DNA of 49,653 bases from Escherichia phage BUCT-XGG-1: sequence record PP069513. The stretch is one strand, 5' to 3'. Both the position numbers and the translations under genes were made by a program. The notes below the pieces were generated by a model that was given only the letters and a program-made list of their open reading frames with translations, was not told the DNA's origin and searched no databases. This document shows, piece after piece, positions 5,575-49,283 of this stretch; position 1 is the stretch's first letter, and every line of letters starts with the position of its first letter.

Positions 5575-5599
5575 AAAAAAAGGGAGCCTAAAGGCTCCC
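5575..5599 (-). terminator. intrinsic terminator
   Basis: Minus strand GGGAGCC TTTA GGCTCCC followed by T7. Confidence 0.6.
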
Positions 5600-5626
5600 C
5601 GTGCGTAACGTTATGTTTTTATTGCG

Positions 5627-5800
5627 CTAGTCAGCGATAATAAATTCAACCAGCGCACCATCAATCGGCGCAAAAATCCACGTCATATCGTCGCCGTAAA
5701 TCTTGTAGTTACCGTCACCTTGATACTCGGCGCTGTACGGATTGTTGACAGTGAAAGGCAGGGTTTTAGATGTGTTCTTAACGCAAAATAATTTAACCAT
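5627..5800 (-). CDS. small hypothetical protein (57 aa)
   Basis: Unlisted ORF MVKLFCVKNT... with RBS AAGAGGA, between box promoter and terminator. Confidence 0.4.
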   Translation of the reverse strand: MVKLFCVKNTSKTLPFTVNNPYSAEYQGDGNYKIYGDDMTWIFAPIDGALVEFIIAD

Positions 5801-5827
5801 GATTGAATCCTCTTTGAGTGAGATATG

Positions 5828-5873
5828 AATATAGCGCCTTCCGGCGCTATAGTGTTAGGCAATTCGTGCTATC
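5828..5873 (-). promoter_or_regulatory. box promoter candidate (variant ATAGCACGAATTGCCTAA)
   Basis: Box 5855-5873 abutting TGA stop of 5872..7014; hairpin GCGCC GGAA GGCGC; TATATT at 5828-5833 (23-bp gap). Confidence 0.45.
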
Positions 5874-7014
5874 AGATGTCGCTCATTTCAGGACGGTAAA
5901 CAAATCGACCTACTTCGCCGAACTCCTTGGAGTAGACGATTACCGCCGCCTGGCGATACGAGCGCCAACCGCCGCGCGCCGCATAGGCATCTTTCGCGCC
6001 CAACTGACCATGAACCTCATCAATGCCAAGTGTACCCTCAGTGATCGTCTGGTGATGCCAGTGCCCCGAGTGAGTGTAAATATATTTGCTCGTACCGAAC
6101 TCTTCGCGGAAGTCAGTAGCCATTGCCGCCAGTCGAGTATCTGCTTTCTTCATGGTGTGACCATGAGTGTATCCCAGCAATGTTTTGCCCCACTTGGTAC
6201 GGTGAAGAATCATAGGAGATGTATCAACCGTTACACGCACCTCATCTTCAAAGTATGCCGCCATTGCAGCGCGGAGCCAAATCATACCAGCCTGGTCATG
6301 GTTTCCTTCAATGATCTGAATTTCGACCTCTTCGTGCTTATCCAGCATTAGCGCCACCGCGCGGCGTACGGAACGGATTGCAACGTGAACTAGCTTGGCG
6401 TATCGACTATCCTGATCCAGTACGTGACCGCTTGCAGGCGTTACTGCGTCCAGGCCATCAGAGTGAAGGAAGTCACCGCCGATTAACAGGACTGCTTTCT
6501 TAGCCTTCGGAGATACGCCGACAGAATAATCAAAGAAGTTTTTCAGTACTTTCTCTGAGATGTCGGTGCTGTAGTTCTCACCGCATTCATGCTTGTGTGC
6601 CATAGCGCCAATATGAAGATCGAATACCGGATAGAGCGCCAGGAGATTTTCATCGTAGTGAGGTTCGCCAAGGATAGGCTGAGCCGCCGCGCGTGGTAGT
6701 TCATCACAGAATGCTTCAATTGCAGCATCCATCATGGCGGCTAACTTTTCCTTGTCCTGATCGGTCTTAACCCAGCGCACAACCTCAGAACCGTCAGCGC
6801 GAATCATAGTTGATGTACCTTTAACCTGAAAACCCTCTGGTACGTGTACTCTTACGTGTTTATTTCCGTGGAACTCACCGCGCTTTGCCAGGCGGCTTGA
6901 GCGCTGCTCAACAGTTCGAATGTTCATCCCGTATTCCTGGGCGATTTGGCGCAGTGTTTTACCAGCTTCGCGTTCAGCAATGAATTGTTCGTCAGTGATT
7001 TTTTGAATAGCCAT
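5872..7014 (-). CDS. metallophosphoesterase with N-terminal HTH
   Basis: Motifs DLHIG, GGDFLHSD, GNHD, GHTH, GHWHH (calcineurin-like, SbcD/Mre11-like order); N-terminal TLRQIAQEYGMNIRTVEQR helix-turn-helix. Confidence 0.65.
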   Translation of the reverse strand: MAIQKITDEQFIAEREAGKTLRQIAQEYGMNIRTVEQRSSRLAKRGEFHGNKHVRVHVPEGFQVKGTSTMIRADGSEVVRWVKTDQDKEKLAAMMDAAIEAFCDELPRAAAQPILGEPHYDENLLALYPVFDLHIGAMAHKHECGENYSTDISEKVLKNFFDYSVGVSPKAKKAVLLIGGDFLHSDGLDAVTPASGHVLDQDSRYAKLVHVAIRSVRRAVALMLDKHEEVEIQIIEGNHDQAGMIWLRAAMAAYFEDEVRVTVDTSPMILHRTKWGKTLLGYTHGHTMKKADTRLAAMATDFREEFGTSKYIYTHSGHWHHQTITEGTLGIDEVHGQLGAKDAYAARGGWRSYRQAAVIVYSKEFGEVGRFVYRPEMSDI

Positions 7015-7097
7015 TTTTATAAATCCTTATCGTGTTAGTAAGTAGATGATAATAAAACCAATTAGCGTCGGTAATAATACATGAATTAAGCAGCGCA

Positions 7098-7349
7098 TCA
7101 AATCTTTTTCAACCATGTTGTTAAAGTATCTGGATCAACCGCTTCACCTGCACTCTCTGATTCACTGGGAACCATCATACCAGTTGAAGGGCTAAAATAC
7201 ATCAGGCGATAGCCGCCACCGCGCGAACATGGCACATCTTCGAAGTCAGAAGGCAACCAGTCAGCGAAAGGGATGATCGCGAACGTCTCATTGTTGTTGC
7301 TGCAAGTCGGATATTTGTCAGCGTCAAAATCAAGGCCTGGTAAGTTCAT
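7098..7349 (-). CDS. hypothetical protein (83 aa)
   Basis: ORF in operon, ATGA-type overlap with upstream gene. Confidence 0.4.
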   Translation of the reverse strand: MNLPGLDFDADKYPTCSNNNETFAIIPFADWLPSDFEDVPCSRGGGYRLMYFSPSTGMMVPSESESAGEAVDPDTLTTWLKKI

Positions 7350-7841: not shown

Positions 7842-7886
7842 AGTATACCCGCGCGGTGGCGGGTATGTTTAGCAATTCGTGCTATT
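7842..7886 (-). promoter_or_regulatory. box promoter candidate
   Basis: Box 7868-7886 containing TAG stop of 7882..8109; TATACT at 7842-7847 (22-bp gap). Confidence 0.45.
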
Positions 7887-9146: not shown

Positions 9147-9192
9147 ATAATACACCACCTCACCGATTCGTCTTTAGCAATTAGTGCTATTC
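9147..9192 (-). promoter_or_regulatory. box promoter candidate
   Basis: Box ATAGCACTAATTGCTAAA (9173-9192) supplying NSTNC-stop of 9174..9602; TATTAT at 9147-9152 (22-bp gap); leader CATCGAAACGAA. Confidence 0.5.
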
Positions 9193-9602
9193 AGCATATC
9201 AGCAACGGCTTTCTTGTATTCCTCCTGGCCGTACGCCACCGCCGCGAATCCGCCACGCTCTCGGACACGCCGGAGGAAATCTTTCTGCTCCTTACTGACT
9301 GGTGATGCCTTTCCTTTTCCGCTCTTATTGACGCGCTTTAATTCTATGGCTCCGAAAGGATATTTACCGAACGGACCTAGAAGGAATACAAAGTCACTAA
9401 CCCCCTTCAATAACCCGCTCTGAGCATCCTTTAACGCCGTGTGGATGTGCTTCTTGTTCTCATTAACGGCGTGCCAGAACAGCAAATCACCATGCCTAAC
9501 CTTCGTCCAAGTCACGCAATCTACTTGGTGCTTGCTTTCCGTCCATGTGTCAGATTTGTCTGGCGTGTAATATTCAATGTAATCTATTTTATCGGTTTTC
9601 AT
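9174..9602 (-). CDS. VRR-NUC domain nuclease
   Basis: GVSDFVF ... AIELKR pattern matching VRR-NUC PD-(D/E)xK core. Confidence 0.55.
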   Translation of the reverse strand: MKTDKIDYIEYYTPDKSDTWTESKHQVDCVTWTKVRHGDLLFWHAVNENKKHIHTALKDAQSGLLKGVSDFVFLLGPFGKYPFGAIELKRVNKSGKGKASPVSKEQKDFLRRVRERGGFAAVAYGQEEYKKAVADMLNSTNC

Positions 9603-10081
9603 TTTTTCGCTCCGTGGTTTTTATGGAACCCATTGGTTGACTCTGTAAGTTTTCTTGCTGAGATTGCATCGGCAAGTGACCTTCCTTCGTATAGGAATTT
9701 TTTCTTACCGCCAATCTGTATCTGTGCTACCCATGTCTTATTCCTTGACTTCCAGTTAACTCCTGTAACTCCGCTTTTGTTGTTTGAATACATCGACTTG
9801 TTAAGCATGTTATCGCCGCGACTAACAAGCCTTAAGTTTTCTATTCTATTATCAGTTCTTATGTGGTTTATGTGGTCAACCTCCATTCCGTTCGGCATTG
9901 GTCCGTTATGCATTACCCAAACTATGACGTGAGCGGGTTATGACTTCTTTTTGTACATGACTTTAATGTAACCTTCGCTGTCTATAGTGCCGGCTAAGTC
10001 TCCCTCATACACCTTTGCGCTGGGCTTTATAGCCCAGAATAATAATCCATTTTTATAATTCAGTATGTTATTAAAAATCAT
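9599..10081 (-). pseudogene. HNH-AP2 homing endonuclease interrupted by in-frame TAA
   Basis: ATG at 10081 (ATGA overlap with helicase stop) gives MIFNNILNYKNG...YKKKS then TAA at 9938-9940, then in frame PAHVIVWVMHNG...DHINHIRTDNRIENLRLV; full-length paralogs at 17492, 36060, 12801. Confidence 0.6.
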
Positions 10082-12754: not shown

Positions 12755-12787
12755 GGTTGTGCCATAATTGGTGCAACCTTTTTTTAT
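12755..12787 (+). terminator. intrinsic terminator
   Basis: GGTTGTGCCA TAAT TGGTGCAACC (two G.U pairs) followed by T7. Confidence 0.5.
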
Positions 12788-12800
12788 TGGAGTAAATACA

Positions 12801-13247
12801 GTGAAGATATTAAGATTTTTGTATCTATATAAAGATGGTAATTTAATTCGATGCTACAGGGCTGGGAGGCACGCGCCTGGAGAAGTAGCAGGCACTGCTC
12901 ATATCTCAGGTTACATTCATGTTGGCGTGCTAGGGAAAATAATGAAAGCGCATAGGGTTTCATGGTGGATAAACTATGGCTTCATACCTGATCATTTGCA
13001 TATAGACCACAAAAATCACATTAGGAGTGATAACAGAATAGAAAACCTTGAATTGAAAAGTAACGCCGAGAATCACAAAAACATGTCTATATATAAAAAC
13101 AATAAGAGTGGAACTCATGGCGTTAGATGGAATAGAAAATTCTCAAGGTGGGACGTAAACATCGTAGTTAATGGCAAAAAGTGCTACGTTGGAGTTTTCA
13201 AGTCTCTTTCTGCCGCAGTAGATGCTAAGATTAAAGCAGAAATATAA
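12801..13247 (+). CDS. HNH-AP2 homing endonuclease
   Basis: GTG start after GGAG RBS; HxxH..N..H HNH core (HIDHKNHIRSDNRIENL) and AP2-like tail; start moved downstream of terminator. Confidence 0.7.
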   Translation: MKILRFLYLYKDGNLIRCYRAGRHAPGEVAGTAHISGYIHVGVLGKIMKAHRVSWWINYGFIPDHLHIDHKNHIRSDNRIENLELKSNAENHKNMSIYKNNKSGTHGVRWNRKFSRWDVNIVVNGKKCYVGVFKSLSAAVDAKIKAEI

Positions 13248-16268: not shown

Positions 16269-16718
16269 TCAGAATGGGATGTCATCATCGAACTGGTTTT
16301 GCTGCTGCGGTTGCTGCTGCTGGCGTTGTTGCTGCTGAGGCTGCTGACGTTGTTGCTGCTGGCCTTGGCCCTGCTGTGATGGCTCACGCTGGCTGAATTG
16401 CAACTGAGGCCGGATCATCTCTGCGGTTACATAAACAGTGCCGTCATTACCCTGGCGTGACGCCAAGTGAAGCGTGTCGGCAGAAATTGATACAATCTTA
16501 CCTTCCTTGAACGCTTCATCATACCACTGCATAACGTTTTCTTTTGCGAAGAACGTAGCGCGGTAGTTACTGTAAACCGTCTCATCCTCGCCCTGTTGAT
16601 TGCGAATCTTCATGCGTTCTGACAGTTCGACGGCGTACATTTTCCAGCGCCCGTTGTTGTTGCTGCCTTCTTTGGTAAATGGTGCTTTTCGGATCTGACC
16701 AGTGATTACGTGTGGCAT
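16269..16718 (-). CDS. ssb: single-stranded DNA-binding protein
   Basis: Gln/Pro-rich linker and acidic C-terminal tip DDDIPF characteristic of bacterial-type SSB. Confidence 0.85.
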   Translation of the reverse strand: MPHVITGQIRKAPFTKEGSNNNGRWKMYAVELSERMKIRNQQGEDETVYSNYRATFFAKENVMQWYDEAFKEGKIVSISADTLHLASRQGNDGTVYVTAEMIRPQLQFSQREPSQQGQGQQQQRQQPQQQQRQQQQPQQQNQFDDDIPF

Positions 16719-17452: not shown

Positions 17453-17495
17453 ATTATAGCAAATCACCGCGTTCGTGTTTAGCAAAAAGTGCTAC
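17453..17495 (-). promoter_or_regulatory. box promoter candidate
   Basis: Box GTAGCACTTTTTGCTAAA (17478-17495) containing TAG stop of HNH gene; hairpin CGGTGATT..AATCACCG holding TGCTATAAT (21-bp gap). Confidence 0.5.
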
Positions 17496-17950
17496 CTGCC
17501 ATGCCTTAAAGTAAAATCACCATTCATTGAGATGTATCTTTCCCTTGCCTCTTTCGCTTCAATTGCCGTGTTGAAACTACCAAGGCTTTTCTGCACTCCA
17601 TTTACCTTTACCCTTGCGTTCCATTTACATCTTTGCTTAACAAAAACAACACCTGTGAATCCTGATGTGTTATTTGACTGCATCTTTTTATTTTTATTGT
17701 TGATGGCTCTAGTTACAAGTCTTAGGTTTTCAATCCTGTTATCACTTCTTATTCCGTTAATGTGGTCTATCTCGTAACCTTCTGGTATAGGTCCGTAGTG
17801 CATTTCCCATATAACCCTATGATATAGAAACTTCACATAGTTAAATGAGATCATTAAGTACCCGTTACCTTTCGGTGTTCCGGCAATCTTGCCGCTTTTT
17901 ATCCAGTAAAGGTTGCCGTCTATGTATTTTAATTTCTCATTGAAATTCAT
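17492..17950 (-). CDS. HNH-AP2 homing endonuclease
   Basis: EIDHINGIRSDNRIENLRLV HNH core and AP2-like C-terminal region; inserted between exonuclease and Erf. Confidence 0.8.
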   Translation of the reverse strand: MNFNEKLKYIDGNLYWIKSGKIAGTPKGNGYLMISFNYVKFLYHRVIWEMHYGPIPEGYEIDHINGIRSDNRIENLRLVTRAINNKNKKMQSNNTSGFTGVVFVKQRCKWNARVKVNGVQKSLGSFNTAIEAKEARERYISMNGDFTLRHGR

Positions 17951-19266: not shown

Positions 19267-19345
19267 AATATATATAATAATAATAATTATAGTAGAGGGT
19301 TGATATATATAGATATTTTAATGTAACTATCGCGTAACTAGGCGT
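19267..19345 (+). repeat. AT-rich element, copy A of a two-copy repeat
   Basis: ATATATAATAATAATAAT..GAGGGTTGATATAT..GATATTTTAATGTAAC..GCGTAACT, homologous to 48941-49016; GTAACT/GTTACA iterons around it. Confidence 0.6.
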
Positions 19346-34926: not shown

Positions 34927-36063
34927 TTACTTTTTGTTAATTAATTTTTTCAGTCGATCTTGCGGATCAAATGATTCGTTTTCTTTACCGTCAGATTTGT
35001 CGGCAGTGCCGAAAACCTTAACGCGCTGAGCGGCCATTTTATCAGACTCTTTAGCCAAATCAAAGGCAGCTTCGATGTACGAGTCAGATTTCTCAGTAGC
35101 ATCAATACCAGAAACCTCCTTGATGTAGGCAACCTTAATTTCTTTTGCGCCAAGTCCATCGCACTTAATGCCAATCTCACCAGCAATAGCAACCAGGCCA
35201 GCCAGCTCATCAGCGTCAGCTTTTGCTTTAGCAACAGCGGCTTCGATCTGTGCTGGAATGCCATCCACTTTAACTTTCAGAGCGTCGCGCTCAGCTTCAA
35301 TTTCGCTAACCTTTTTCTTTTCTGCATCTGCATCTGCCTTGATGGATGCGATGTGGTCAGCTACGTCTTTTGACACTTCCACTTCTGCGGAATCAATTTT
35401 GATTTTTACGGTCATTTTACTTTCCTCTTTTGGTAATTGAACATGCTCATCATATTTAATTTCTTCTGAGCCGTCAAGGTTTAATCTGGCAATACCTGCG
35501 CGACCGTGCTTTACCTTGGCGACGTGGTTTGGGATGATGTTCGTTTGCAGCACGTCAAACTCTTCCCACTCGTCGGTCATGACGGTTCCGTTAGGGAATT
35601 GCGCCTCCATTCCCTCAGCGTCATCCTTGAAAACATACTCGCCAGTATTGACGTTTCCCCACCCTTCGCGGTGAATGTCATTGGTCTTGTAACCAACCGA
35701 CAATTCTGCGGCGTCGCCACGCTTGGCGGATTCAATTGATTCCTTGTCGTGAATTACGATCGGACACTTCAAGCCAATACCATCACGACGACCAGCGCCG
35801 GATAGTGAGCCGACAACAATCTTCCGCGCGTTGCTTGTGCTTACTTCCTGGTGGCCCTCTACGATCGGCATACCGCGAAACAGTTCCATCGCCTCGGCCT
35901 TGAACACTTCGTTTGCTGGTCGGAACTCACGCTGAATTGTTCCATCGGCACGCATATATTCCTGAATACCGATTCGCGCAATGATTGGCTCATCATGCAT
36001 GAATCCGTTAGAGTCAAAGCGTGCTTTCAGTTGCACGCTATCGTATCGTTGCTTAGTGGTCAT
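34927..36063 (-). CDS. prohead scaffold / protease-like protein
   Basis: 378 aa with Ala/Lys/Glu/Asp-rich helical C-terminal half typical of scaffolds. Confidence 0.5.
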   Translation of the reverse strand: MTTKQRYDSVQLKARFDSNGFMHDEPIIARIGIQEYMRADGTIQREFRPANEVFKAEAMELFRGMPIVEGHQEVSTSNARKIVVGSLSGAGRRDGIGLKCPIVIHDKESIESAKRGDAAELSVGYKTNDIHREGWGNVNTGEYVFKDDAEGMEAQFPNGTVMTDEWEEFDVLQTNIIPNHVAKVKHGRAGIARLNLDGSEEIKYDEHVQLPKEESKMTVKIKIDSAEVEVSKDVADHIASIKADADAEKKKVSEIEAERDALKVKVDGIPAQIEAAVAKAKADADELAGLVAIAGEIGIKCDGLGAKEIKVAYIKEVSGIDATEKSDSYIEAAFDLAKESDKMAAQRVKVFGTADKSDGKENESFDPQDRLKKLINKK

Positions 36064-36545
36064 TTTTTACTCCCGTGATTTTTATGAAATTTATATACAG
36101 ACTCCGCAACCTTTCTTGCAGAGATTGCGTCATCTTTTCTATCGTATCTACCAAGGAATTTCTCCTTTTTGTCCACCCTTATTGAAGCAATCCATTTACT
36201 GGTTCTATTACACCAGCTAACGCCAACAACTCCGCTTTTGTTTGACTTGCTCATGGATACGTTTTTGCAATTCTCTTGTCTAGTAGTTACGAGCCTTAGG
36301 TTTTCTATCCTGTTATCATCTCTGATATGGTTTATATGGTCAATCTCCATTCCTTCAGGTATTTTACCATGGTGCATCTCCCATATTACCCTATGAGCCG
36401 GAGTTAGCCTACCCATAATCCTAACGTAAATATATCCACCCTCATCCTTCCAGCCAGCCATATCGCCAACTTTAACCCTTTTCGATGTCGGATTTTTCCA
36501 GATGAGATCTTTCTCTATATGATAAAAATAATCATTGAAATTCAT
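36060..36545 (-). CDS. HNH-AP2 homing endonuclease
   Basis: EIDHINHIRDDNRIENLRLV core and AP2-like tail; inserted between head morphogenesis and scaffold genes with 4-nt overlaps. Confidence 0.8.
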   Translation of the reverse strand: MNFNDYFYHIEKDLIWKNPTSKRVKVGDMAGWKDEGGYIYVRIMGRLTPAHRVIWEMHHGKIPEGMEIDHINHIRDDNRIENLRLVTTRQENCKNVSMSKSNKSGVVGVSWCNRTSKWIASIRVDKKEKFLGRYDRKDDAISARKVAESVYKFHKNHGSKK

Positions 36546-43355: not shown

Positions 43356-43401
43356 ACTATAACAAAACCCGCCGGAGCGGGTTTAGCAATTCGTGCTATT
43401 T
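43356..43401 (-). promoter_or_regulatory. box promoter candidate
   Basis: Box 43382-43401 abutting TAA of kinase gene; hairpin CCCGCTCCGGCGGG; TGTTATAGT (22-bp gap). Confidence 0.5.
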
Positions 43402-44020
43402 ACCAAGGAATATCGTCGGCCCAATCATCATCCATTGAAGGACTAACCAAGCAAGCGCGAACTACTTTAAGGACGCCATCATCAACATCACCATTTACCA
43501 GATGCACATCATGCTCGTTATATTTCTTGTAATCAGGGAAGTGCGATTCCTTGATGCGGATGTAATCACGGCTATCTCCCGCGAAAGTCTTGCCATCCAT
43601 GAACAAGCGGACCAGGGTAACATCGTGACCATCTTCAACGAGTCGAATCACTTCATCGGGGAAGCCGCCATCAGTGCAAACAAAACAGAAGCCTTCATCA
43701 CACAGACGGATATGTTCGCTCATCAATTTGCCGAACTGCTGATTGCCAAAAAGCGGCTTGACCACCGTTTCGCTAATCCAGATCATGAACTCACGGCAGG
43801 TCTTGCCACCGAGAAAGACCTGAGGCTGCTCTTTCTGATCGCGGTCGTCGTATGCTGTGATGAACTTTGAAAAAGCCCTGGCCCCAAGGATGGATGCTGC
43901 AATCTCAAACATCGGACGTTTGAAGCTGGTAGGGATGCAATTGTAATCTGCTGCCAGTGCATTGCCGATCGTGTCTTTACCTACGCCAGCAGGGCCGTTT
44001 AGAATGATAATCTTTGACAT
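43400..44020 (-). CDS. P-loop kinase (dNMP kinase-like) with SSB-like tip DDIPW
   Basis: Walker A GPAGVGKDT; C-terminus DDDWADDIPW. Confidence 0.6.
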   Translation of the reverse strand: MSKIIILNGPAGVGKDTIGNALAADYNCIPTSFKRPMFEIAASILGARAFSKFITAYDDRDQKEQPQVFLGGKTCREFMIWISETVVKPLFGNQQFGKLMSEHIRLCDEGFCFVCTDGGFPDEVIRLVEDGHDVTLVRLFMDGKTFAGDSRDYIRIKESHFPDYKKYNEHDVHLVNGDVDDGVLKVVRACLVSPSMDDDWADDIPW

Positions 44021-44069: not shown

Positions 44070-44687
44070 TTATTTACCGCTTACGAGATTGCATTTTTTG
44101 CACTGGCGAACGCCATGTGGAGGTAGCGGATCGCTAAATTCGTGCTCGCAAACTTTTTCTACGCCGTGAGACTTAAGTCCAGAGTGCACGTTGTCGCCAT
44201 AGTCACACACCTGATAGGTGGTGATGCCGAGGCTTCTGAAGTGCGCGATAACGCTAGGACTATCATCAAAGGCCGCAGTGATGCGGTGCAAGCCAATGTA
44301 TCGTAAAAATTCTTCCTTGATGATCGTATCCTTTCGATTGTCATCAGCTTGGCGCATGACCAGAAAGTTGTATTTAGCGCCAGCATCATACAGCCATTGC
44401 GTTGATTCTTCAACAACTGCATCCGATCGACCAGTAAGTACGATGATGAAAGCGCCGGAAGCGAACAGGCCATTCATTACGTCAATCGTTTCCTGGAATG
44501 GCGTGTCGAATTTACTCAGTGAGTTAAATTCAAGCCATGACTCAGTGAGGTGTAAATCTTTGGTCGGTAGCTTATGCAGGCGGTGAGTTCCGTCTGACAG
44601 AGTGCCGTCGAAATCAAAGCAGTATACTTTTTTATTGACTGCAACTGTTTCTAAATGGTGTTTAATCATGGTGTATAGCTGATTCAT
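44070..44687 (-). CDS. HAD-superfamily phosphatase
   Basis: HAD motif I FDFDGTLSD near N-terminus; C-terminal Cys pairs. Confidence 0.65.
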   Translation of the reverse strand: MNQLYTMIKHHLETVAVNKKVYCFDFDGTLSDGTHRLHKLPTKDLHLTESWLEFNSLSKFDTPFQETIDVMNGLFASGAFIIVLTGRSDAVVEESTQWLYDAGAKYNFLVMRQADDNRKDTIIKEEFLRYIGLHRITAAFDDSPSVIAHFRSLGITTYQVCDYGDNVHSGLKSHGVEKVCEHEFSDPLPPHGVRQCKKCNLVSGK

Positions 44688-45136
44688 AGTAAGTATCCTG
44701 TAGTTATCACTCTGTATGCTGTTCTTTTGCCAACTCCCATTGCGTCAGCTATATCCTGATAGGTCATGCCATCAGTTCTCATTCTTAACATCTTTCTTGA
44801 GTCTTCGCTAGTTACTATTGACTTCGGGTTCTTAAGCCCCTCAACGCTTCGGAACCTGCCCTTCGATACGCAATCAATCACGTTATCATGCTGACTACCT
44901 ACCGATAGGTGCTTTGGATTAATGCAAGAAGGATTATCGCATGAATGCATTATTACACCTTTTACGCATTCATAATCTACATCATTGCTTATGAAGTAAG
45001 CTACTTTGTGCGCCCTTCTAGTAGCTCCAGCGTATCTTACCTGGCCATATCCATCAACGGTCCTTGAGTTATTCCACTCTATACAATCATCCGTCTGCCT
45101 CCTTATCATTATTATTAATTCATCTACCTTTTTCAT
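44684..45136 (-). CDS. HNH endonuclease with C-terminal HTH
   Basis: HSCDNPSCINPKHL HNH/zinc motif and C-terminal HTH (MTYQDIADAMGVGKRTAYRV); 4-nt overlap with phosphatase. Confidence 0.65.
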   Translation of the reverse strand: MKKVDELIIMIRRQTDDCIEWNNSRTVDGYGQVRYAGATRRAHKVAYFISNDVDYECVKGVIMHSCDNPSCINPKHLSVGSQHDNVIDCVSKGRFRSVEGLKNPKSIVTSEDSRKMLRMRTDGMTYQDIADAMGVGKRTAYRVITTGYLL

Positions 45137-47525: not shown

Positions 47526-47571
47526 ATCATAGCTGACTACCCGATCCATTGTTTAGCAATTCGTGCTATTC
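47526..47571 (-). promoter_or_regulatory. box promoter candidate
   Basis: Box 47552-47571 containing TAG stop of 47566..48123; hairpin GGGTA..TACCC with GCTATGAT (22-bp gap). Confidence 0.5.
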
Positions 47572-48940: not shown

Positions 48941-49016
48941 ATATATATATAATAATAATAATAATATAGATAAAGGGTTGTTATATAAGGATATTTTATT
49001 GTAACCATGGCGTAAT
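48941..49016 (+). repeat. AT-rich element, copy B of a two-copy repeat
   Basis: Homologous to 19267-19345 by eye; flanked by short direct/inverted repeats (TTCCTACAA x2, ATCTACAT x2, GGCGTAA x3). Confidence 0.6.
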
Positions 49017-49283
49017 TCTGCGTGATAAGCGTACACGATTCCTACGGTGGGCTTCTTCATCTACACGGCGTAACTTTTATAACGCGTATGCGCTAGAAAC
49101 GTGTGGTGGGAAAATCCTACCAGGCGATCAGGTGATCAGACTTCACCCCATCATTCCCCCCATCAATGAATCATTGCTCAATTCGCAACAATCGAAAACA
49201 TAATTGCAATAGATGCAATATTGCTATCTGCGCAATAGTGAAGTGAATCATTGCAATAGCTGCAACAATCCATAAATCGAACG

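Follow-up and report, generated by a model that had tools for sequence, protein, structure and literature searches.

The genome sequence of Escherichia phage BUCT-XGG-1 (PP069513, 49,653 nucleotides (nt); called here the window, meaning this whole stretch of DNA) encodes a 380-amino acid (aa) protein in which an N-terminal helix-turn-helix (HTH) is joined to a calcineurin-like metallophosphoesterase (MPE) core. Judging from sequence profiles and a predicted structure, we tentatively propose, with somewhat less than even confidence, that this protein is a stand-alone, Rad50-independent and metal-dependent nuclease or phosphodiesterase that would act on DNA ends or DNA structures in phage DNA metabolism. 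The window corresponds to the near-complete genome of a T1-like siphophage (Drexlerviridae) and is collinear with phage T1; Escherichia phages P817, TH21 and PH1062 (Drexlerviridae, Nouzillyvirus) are 94-96% identical to it over the region. The gene is placed between Dam and the lysis cassette, as in T1 (Table 1). The open reading frame (ORF) and the architecture described in the initial annotation, an HTH followed by a phosphoesterase, both stand, with the strand corrected to minus. The ORF has an ATG start preceded by an AAGGA ribosome-binding site 8 nt upstream, and a TGA stop codon at 5874-5872. It is not a chance ORF, because thousands of full-length homologues exist; a 177-aa ORF located inside it on the opposite strand (5818-6351, plus) was rejected as a by-product of the real gene.

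The AlphaFold2 model of the protein, built on an alignment of 122 relatives (29-87% identity to the window protein), reached a predicted local distance difference test score (pLDDT) of 94.1 and a predicted template modelling score of 0.82. The HTH consists of three helices (aa 8-16, 21-27 and 32-44), the last of which is the recognition helix (IRTVEQRSSRLAK). The HTH fold is certain, its assignment to the LuxR/GerE or sigma-70 region 4 subtype tentative. The window HTH matched the Pfam models HTH_23 and Sigma70_r4 weakly (E 0.02-0.19, below thresholds), the HTHs of relatives matched Sigma70_r4_2 (1.5e-9) and GerE (2.4e-8) together with LysR, Fis and transposase HTH models, and the family profile matched a GerE structure in the PDB at E 0.008. 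The HTH is kept across the family, and a search for fusions ('Rosetta stone') in the longer members of the family, which carry a second HTH, revealed no fused partner, only duplicated HTHs. It is followed by a family-specific module made of a beta-hairpin (VKGTSTxx...WVKT) and a helix, in which all distant relatives keep G66, S68, W81 and K83, and G75 and W81 are conserved in at least 90% of the 122 sequences; residues 105-120 then form a linker of lower model confidence.

The C-terminal part of the model has the beta-sandwich MPE fold, and all five motifs announced by the initial annotation are intact and conserved: FDLH (motif I; D132 and H134), GGDFLHSD (motif II; G180, D181, H184 and D186), GNHD (motif III; G237, N238, H239 and D240), THGH (motif IV; H284 and H286) and GHWH (motif V; G317, H318 and H320). 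Only the reading of motif II had to be changed, from GDxxD to GDxxHxD, which contains the GDxxH of Mre11-like proteins. None of the 122 relatives departs from D132, D181, N238, H239, H284 or H320, and conservation reaches 90% or more at H134, H184 and H318. The core also holds a conserved loop specific for the family (VTPxSGHxLDxDxR, aa 191-204), and we found no C-terminal capping domain in it, with 60 residues following motif V. The domain search that had been suggested as a check gave a mixed picture: PHROG 704 ('DNA repair exonuclease') was matched over the full length (E 1.6e-152, residues 4-378 on positions 2-389 of 390), and PHROG 284 ('exonuclease') was also matched (E 8.6e-11), but no match of the window protein to the Pfam Metallophos models (PF00149, PF12850) appeared even at E<=1. 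Metallophos and Metallophos_2 were detected in 26/122 and 19/122 relatives, respectively (E<=0.01); the missing Pfam match is a matter of model sensitivity and no argument against the MPE fold. A PDB sequence search with the single window protein returned no match either, and family alignments and a structure model were required, because single-protein searches of Pfam, NCBIfam and the PDB gave no usable match for the catalytic domain.

Structure and profile searches agree in placing the catalytic domain, with a lean rather than a sharp boundary, nearest to the nuclease branch of MPEs, i.e., PolD DP1, Mre11, SbcD and PdeM, and thus support the nuclease-like kinship originally suggested. In structural comparisons of the model, high scores were obtained with Thermotoga maritima Mre11 (14.7) and Staphylococcus aureus SbcD (14.3), followed by MJ0936 (13.9), LpxH (13.6) and a group scoring 12-13 (other Mre11s, Vps29, YfcE, Rv0805 and GpdQ); the PdeM 'Nuclease MPE' scored 9.1 and protein phosphatases 9 or less. 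Foldseek recovered the same set of relatives. When an MPE-only profile was compared with MPE structures in the PDB, only Mre11/SbcD and the PdeM 'Nuclease MPE' were matched, and the profile could be aligned to T. maritima Mre11/SbcD over motifs I, II, III and V (GDLLHS versus GDFLHSD). The best NCBIfam match was PdeM (TIGR04123), around motif III, with 18.1 bits against a cutoff of 150. Viral relatives from outside the family in BFVD bear, for the most part, the automatic name 'DNA polymerase II small subunit' or calcineurin-like phosphoesterase, with SbcD-labelled proteins ranking far lower. The nuclease branch grades into the small-molecule esterases without a sharp limit. The accessory features of Mre11/SbcD, DP1 and PdeM all fail to appear in the protein, which is most suitably regarded as a separate MPE family with its own N-terminal HTH and hairpin module. 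As the initial annotation had stated, no SbcC/Rad50-like partner is visible: none (nor a gp46) was found among the window ORFs, in the collinear annotated T1 genome, or beside homologues in other phages. The large ORFs of the window correspond to helicases, a primase, tail and tape-measure proteins, a RecE-like exonuclease, Erf and Dam.

The combination of an HTH with a phosphoesterase is not unusual. The protein turns out to be an ordinary member of the T1 gene 16 family (PHROG 704), the orthologue ST16/gp16 being located at the syntenic place in T1. The window protein is 99% identical to a protein of phage CJ19, with a 100% identical entry also deposited, and 66% identical to a Tunavirus 'Phosphoesterase'. 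A word-indexed search gave 3,219 matches, and an exhaustive search led to 5,284 clusters at 50% identity (E<=1e-3), 1,323 of them at E<=1e-30, mostly of about 370-420 aa with alignments starting near the N-terminus. Family members are present in 2,057 of 50,697 deposited phage genomes, and are carried by Drexlerviridae, Dhillonvirus, Guernseyvirinae (Jerseyvirus and Kagunavirus) and some Autographiviridae (LIMEzero, J8-65), as well as by Vibrio phage VAP7, Campylobacter and Flavobacterium phages and roseophages. Depositors named them hypothetical protein, (metallo)phosphoesterase, DNA repair exonuclease or recombination endonuclease, and in other cases sigma-70 region 4 domain protein or transcriptional regulator; for distant representatives, the cluster names are metagenomic entries that carry no information. 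Since deposition of the T1 genome, the family has been listed under names that are computational. We found no functional study of the family in the literature on the Drexlerviridae/T1 phosphoesterase, HTH proteins fused to MPE/Mre11, escape mutants or host-DNA degradation by T1, and nothing on the timing of the gene in work on T1-like transcriptomics. The sole experimental mention found is that of the homologue gp38 of Pantoea phage AAS23, detected by liquid chromatography-tandem mass spectrometry in a virion preparation (PMC8004638). This protein is not a predicted structural protein, and its detection could reflect carry-over or real packaging.

Two genomic contexts recur around the MPE gene. 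We surveyed 89 homologue loci, comprising 80 IMG/VR loci together with annotated phages and metagenomic contigs, by clustering the two neighbours on each side. The two largest clusters correspond to a PNKP-type HAD phosphatase, present at 27 of the 89 loci and at 26 of them immediately downstream of the MPE gene, and to a P-loop protein resembling deoxynucleoside monophosphate (dNMP) kinases, likewise present at 27/89 loci and second downstream at 25. The order MPE-phosphatase-kinase was found in three unrelated groups, the Webervirus-like Klebsiella Drexlerviridae, Kagunavirus and T7-like podophages, and also in phage AAS23 (PMC8004638). In Kagunavirus the three genes form a small island within the tail module that lies on the opposite strand, looks accessory and adjoins a superinfection-immunity gene. 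In the T7-like podophages the genes for a 5'-3' exonuclease and an endonuclease VII-type protein precede the MPE gene, which is accompanied by one for a MazG-like dGTP diphosphohydrolase; in VAP7 the MPE gene adjoins the primase. Both the phosphatase and the kinase are encoded in the window and in T1, unlinked to the MPE gene. The window HAD protein matched the phosphatase domain of T4 Pnkp and Pnkp1 in the PDB (E 2e-6 to 3e-5). The association is frequent and not obligatory, because Dhillonvirus HK578 has the MPE alone; an obligatory trio was rejected on the same grounds.

The second context is the lysis cassette or the late operon at its end; the MPE gene adjoins the lysis cassette at 37 of 38 Drexlerviridae loci and at all six Dhillonvirus loci (6/6). 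In two distant metagenomic phages (L092 and L093) it is located between tail-fibre or structural genes and an endolysin gene, L093 having a holin gene too. This count is unreliable for the T7-like loci and for Vibrio phage 91E30-1 (L008), one of the 'endolysin' queries being probably MazG-like: the deposited 'endolysin' of the latter (5911-6282) gave a tblastn match to the MazG-like dGTP diphosphohydrolase of T7-like phages and is probably mis-annotated.

If the protein is a stand-alone nuclease, its HTH and beta-hairpin module would hold DNA in place of the Rad50/SbcC ATPase clamp, with DNA bound through the HTH, probably without sequence specificity, and possibly through the hairpin too. Phosphodiester bonds, either at DNA ends or in nicked or structured DNA, would be cut by a putative binuclear metal centre (D132, H134, D181, N238, H284, H318 and H320), H184 and H239 serving as the catalytic histidines. 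Such an enzyme could have a role late in the cycle, in the breakdown of host or unpackaged DNA or in the cleaning of ends, and the PNKP-type 3'-phosphatase and the P-loop kinase may cooperate with it by making ends or released nucleotides reusable. The MPE gene is placed among DNA-processing, nucleotide and late genes. Several points weigh against this proposal. The PDB matches of the MPE profile are marginal (E 0.024-0.6), the protein has no capping domain and no support for dimerisation, and no biochemical or genetic data for any family member were found in the literature. HK578 encodes neither partner, and the operon partners could equally be nucleotide-pool enzymes; indeed, the authors of the AAS23 study file the MPE, the phosphatase and the kinase under nucleotide metabolism (PMC8004638).

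That classification favours another explanation, which we consider unlikely, in which the MPE is a nucleotide-pool or small-molecule phosphodiesterase that would reshape or salvage nucleotide pools together with the HAD phosphatase and the dNMP-kinase-like protein, and might even destroy host signalling nucleotides, the HTH then being a regulatory or protein-interaction module. The nature of the two partners, to which the T7-like phages add the dGTP diphosphohydrolase, is in its favour, and bacterial defence pairs of an MPE and a HAD protein (Metis, PUA-Cal-HAD) act on (d)NTPs, although this is an analogy only. However, a small-molecule enzyme would hardly be expected to have a conserved HTH of DNA-binding type, nucleases are favoured by both the sequence profile and the best structural matches, the HAD partner resembles the polynucleotide 3'-phosphatase domain of T4 Pnkp and not nucleotidases, and no PADLOC or anti-defence family was matched. 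A host nucleic-acid signal had also been proposed at the outset as a target; nothing points there, PADLOC giving no match of the phosphoesterase to known defence proteins and our searches no literature. The same three genes could alternatively form a split end-healing module, in which the MPE would open 2',3'-cyclic phosphates or remove 3' blocks, the HAD protein would remove the 3'-phosphate and the kinase would phosphorylate the 5'-OH, so that host ligase could reseal broken phage DNA or tRNA cut by ribotoxins, by analogy with T4 Pnkp and bacterial Pnkp/Hen1. We regard this as quite unlikely. The gene order shared by three unrelated phage groups, the matches of the HAD protein to the T4 Pnkp and Pnkp1 phosphatase domains and the accessory-looking Kagunavirus island beside a superinfection-immunity gene all argue for it, as does the use of an MPE domain by bacterial Pnkp in end healing. 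On the other hand, a T4-type HAD domain already deals with cyclic phosphates, neither the annotation of the collinear T1 genome nor the window ORFs scanned include a ligase, Dhillonvirus retains the MPE alone, and in the window about 11 kb, counted across the genome ends, separates the three genes.

The HTH invites a further explanation, tied to a promoter box that abuts the phosphoesterase gene. The box pattern in the window is ATAGCAC-N4/5-TG(C/T)TAAA, with a palindromic core TAGCA-N5-TGCTA; it occurs 18 times in the window and 16 times in the T1 locus (L090). All 18 copies have a TATAnT hexamer 21-23 nt after TTGCTA, and no -35 hexamer at normal spacing was found at the box promoters. The palindromic core would lie near -42 from the inferred start, because the TATAnT -10 element is located at this distance. 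In this explanation the protein would be a transcription factor in which the esterase domain is secondary and the sigma-4-like HTH binds the core to activate or repress the box promoters. The position of the palindrome where class II activators bind, the lack of a -35 hexamer, the similarity of the HTH to sigma-70 region 4 and LuxR, the name 'transcriptional regulator' given by some depositors and the adjacency of box and gene are in keeping with it. Nevertheless, whereas the strict pattern is present 145 times in 464 kb of Drexlerviridae loci, it was not found once in 562 kb of non-Drexlerviridae loci encoding the same HTH-MPE architecture, T7-like phages included, and at least one of these T7-like carriers, LIMEzero, is annotated with its own RNA polymerase. 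Within Drexlerviridae, the recognition helix has a mean column identity of 0.73, compared with 0.82 for the MPE core, and bears substitutions at several positions while the box core is conserved enough for the strict pattern; the catalytic residues are strictly conserved. Binding of the box by the HTH, proposed initially together with a sequence-targeted activity, is unsupported, because the box is confined to Drexlerviridae and the architecture is far wider. It is not the family-level function of the HTH, and we rejected it as a leading idea on the basis of this distribution test and of the conservation comparison; nor does anything speak for an interaction limited to this lineage. A plausible candidate binder is the 160-aa Cro/YdaS-like protein of the window (Table 1), whose gene is divergent from the helicase operon and which is an alternative to the MPE in this respect. 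Altogether, we consider a transcription factor very improbable.

We therefore retain the stand-alone nuclease as our working proposal. A more daring extension of it, which strikes us as improbable, would define a new class of autonomous Mre11/DP1-like nucleases in which a built-in HTH replaces the Rad50 clamp and which, with a split PNKP, would form a portable phage module for end repair (DNA or RNA) or counter-defence, delivered or expressed around lysis or entry; in Drexlerviridae the HTH might dock on the box. Delivery or expression at these stages is proposed because a virion preparation contained one member, as detected by mass spectrometry (PMC8004638).

The initial annotation had noted that the stop codon directly abuts a box promoter. 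The box does overlap the last base of the TGA, but the element belongs to the next gene: the stop codon abuts a compound terminator/promoter element serving that gene. This reading was adopted because the hairpin that follows the box (TATAGCGCC-GGAA-GGCGCTATA) is terminator-like and its T1 counterpart is annotated as a terminator. The hairpin is located between the box and the -10 hexamer TATATT (5828-5833), which its 3' arm overlaps, and it has a weak T tract; a simple terminator scan missed it (too few T in the tail). T1 gene 16 has the same stop-box-hairpin layout, the hairpin being annotated by the depositors as rho-independent terminator. More generally, a GC-rich hairpin of variable sequence is almost always present in the spacer between box and -10 or around the -10, and several of these hairpins look terminator-like. 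This layout looks like that of activator-dependent promoters fused to the terminator of the upstream gene. The predicted target of the promoter is a 57-aa gene, which is followed by a strong intrinsic terminator (5581-5600) and then by the holin, endolysin and spanin genes. On the other side, the candidate promoter of the phosphoesterase gene itself sits in the 83-nt gap upstream of it and is not a box promoter; the depositors of ETEP102 annotated a promoter at the equivalent position.

Table 1. Location of the phosphoesterase gene, its domains and other features in the window, with the loci of other phages that carry a split PNKP.
Feature	Position	Strand	Basis or remark
HTH-metallophosphoesterase gene, 380 aa	5872-7014	minus	ORF list, sequence, PHROG 704, T1 synteny
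N-terminal three-helix HTH, aa 8-44	6883-6993	minus	AlphaFold2 helices, pLDDT about 95
Family-specific beta-hairpin (aa 62-86) and helix (aa 88-104)	6703-6840	minus	AlphaFold2
Calcineurin-like MPE core, aa 121-380	5875-6654	minus	
PNKP-type HAD 3'-phosphatase	44070-44687	minus	Pfam HAD_PNKP 2.6e-17
P-loop kinase, dNMP-kinase-like	43400-44020	minus	phrog_139 3.3e-44; weak guanylate-kinase P-loop match
Split PNKP (HAD 3'-phosphatase gene and separate P-loop kinase gene)	loci L004, L003, L007, L014-L024, L078-L080		
Drexlerviridae promoter box ATAGCACGAATTGCCTAA	5855-5872	minus	first A is last base of TGA stop
Hairpin, perfect 9-bp stem and 4-nt loop	5830-5851	minus	unique exact match in window
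57-aa gene (DUF7244/phrog_4788), predicted to be driven by box promoter	5627-5800	minus	profile match, synteny
Candidate sigma-70-like promoter (TTGATG-16-TATTAT)	7074-7101	minus	consensus scan, pattern match only
Box sites (examples)	255-272, 1740-1757	plus	
Box sites (examples)	7868-7885, 9173-9190, 43382-43399, 47552-47569	minus	
Cro/YdaS-like HTH protein, 160 aa	12265-12747	plus	phrog_2856 'transcriptional regulator', T1 ST23 equivalent
HNH homing-endonuclease paralogue	12768-13247	plus	
HNH homing-endonuclease paralogues	17492-17950, 44684-45136	minus	
Probable further HNH paralogues	36060-36545, about 9600-10080	minus	
113-nt repeat family	9820-9932, 17710-17822, 36284-36396		

Outside of the phosphoesterase region, the HNH paralogues are scattered between core genes, one of them being located between the PNKP phosphatase and its upstream neighbour, and the 113-nt repeat family is probably due to them. 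A 72-nt AT-rich sequence (ATAATAATAATAAT...GGGTTG.TATATA...) is present twice in intergenic position (19274-19345 and 48952-49023, 79% identical) and is possibly regulatory or origin-like. Finally, an imperfect repeat with a 15-nt period, rich in GCTGCTG and GTTGCTG, was observed at 16286-16408, just after a 649-aa tail-fibre-like ORF; its opposite strand would encode a Gln/Ser-rich low-complexity stretch.

The window itself holds no new biology beyond that of any T1-like genome, and the sequence of the protein is already in databases. What the present analysis adds is that an operon with the phosphatase and the kinase is conserved, that the gene is placed beside the lysis genes, and that binding of the box found no support. 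Few conserved 'DNA metabolism' genes are commoner than this family in T1-like phages, Dhillonvirus, Guernseyvirinae and some T7-like phages, groups that include many candidates for therapeutic phages, and the name 'DNA repair exonuclease' rests on remote homology only. If the protein is indeed an autonomous, HTH-guided Mre11-like nuclease, it would show that small phages can process ends without a Rad50 partner, and might account for how phages with no polymerase and ligase of their own break down host DNA or heal ends.

Compared with known systems, the protein varies the theme of MPE nucleases by its fused HTH and its independence of a partner. It has the GDxxH and GNHD nuclease motifs in common with Mre11 and SbcD (T. 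maritima Mre11; S. aureus and E. coli SbcD), with which it shares 12-16% identity; unlike them, it has neither a capping domain nor C-terminal Rad50-binding helices and carries the N-terminal HTH and beta-hairpin module instead. Its phosphodiesterase domain is similar to that of DP1 (13% identity), the small subunit of archaeal DNA polymerase D and a 3'-5' proofreading exonuclease, but the N-terminal OB fold of DP1 was not identified in it, the HTH and hairpin occupying this place. No catalytic subunit of DP2 size is annotated in T1 or encoded in the window, whose large ORFs correspond to tail, tape-measure and helicase proteins. Like PdeM, the ligase-associated DNA damage response endonuclease (PDB 6nvo), it is a stand-alone MPE without SMC partner; of the Lhr/ligase neighbourhood of PdeM, neither gene is annotated in T1 or was found among the window ORFs scanned. 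Compared with the T1 gene 16 product there is no substantive difference: length, architecture, genomic place and the box and hairpin after the stop codon are the same. The MPE of bacterial Pnkp has a different affinity, since the window MPE is closer to nucleases than to lambda-phosphatase-type/PPP domains and is not fused to a kinase or ligase. Judged by homology, the recurrent trio would nonetheless encode the same activities as T4 Pnkp and bacterial Pnkp/Hen1, i.e., a kinase, a 3'-phosphatase and, as in bacterial Pnkp, an MPE, distributed over three separate proteins whose genes are unlinked in the window.

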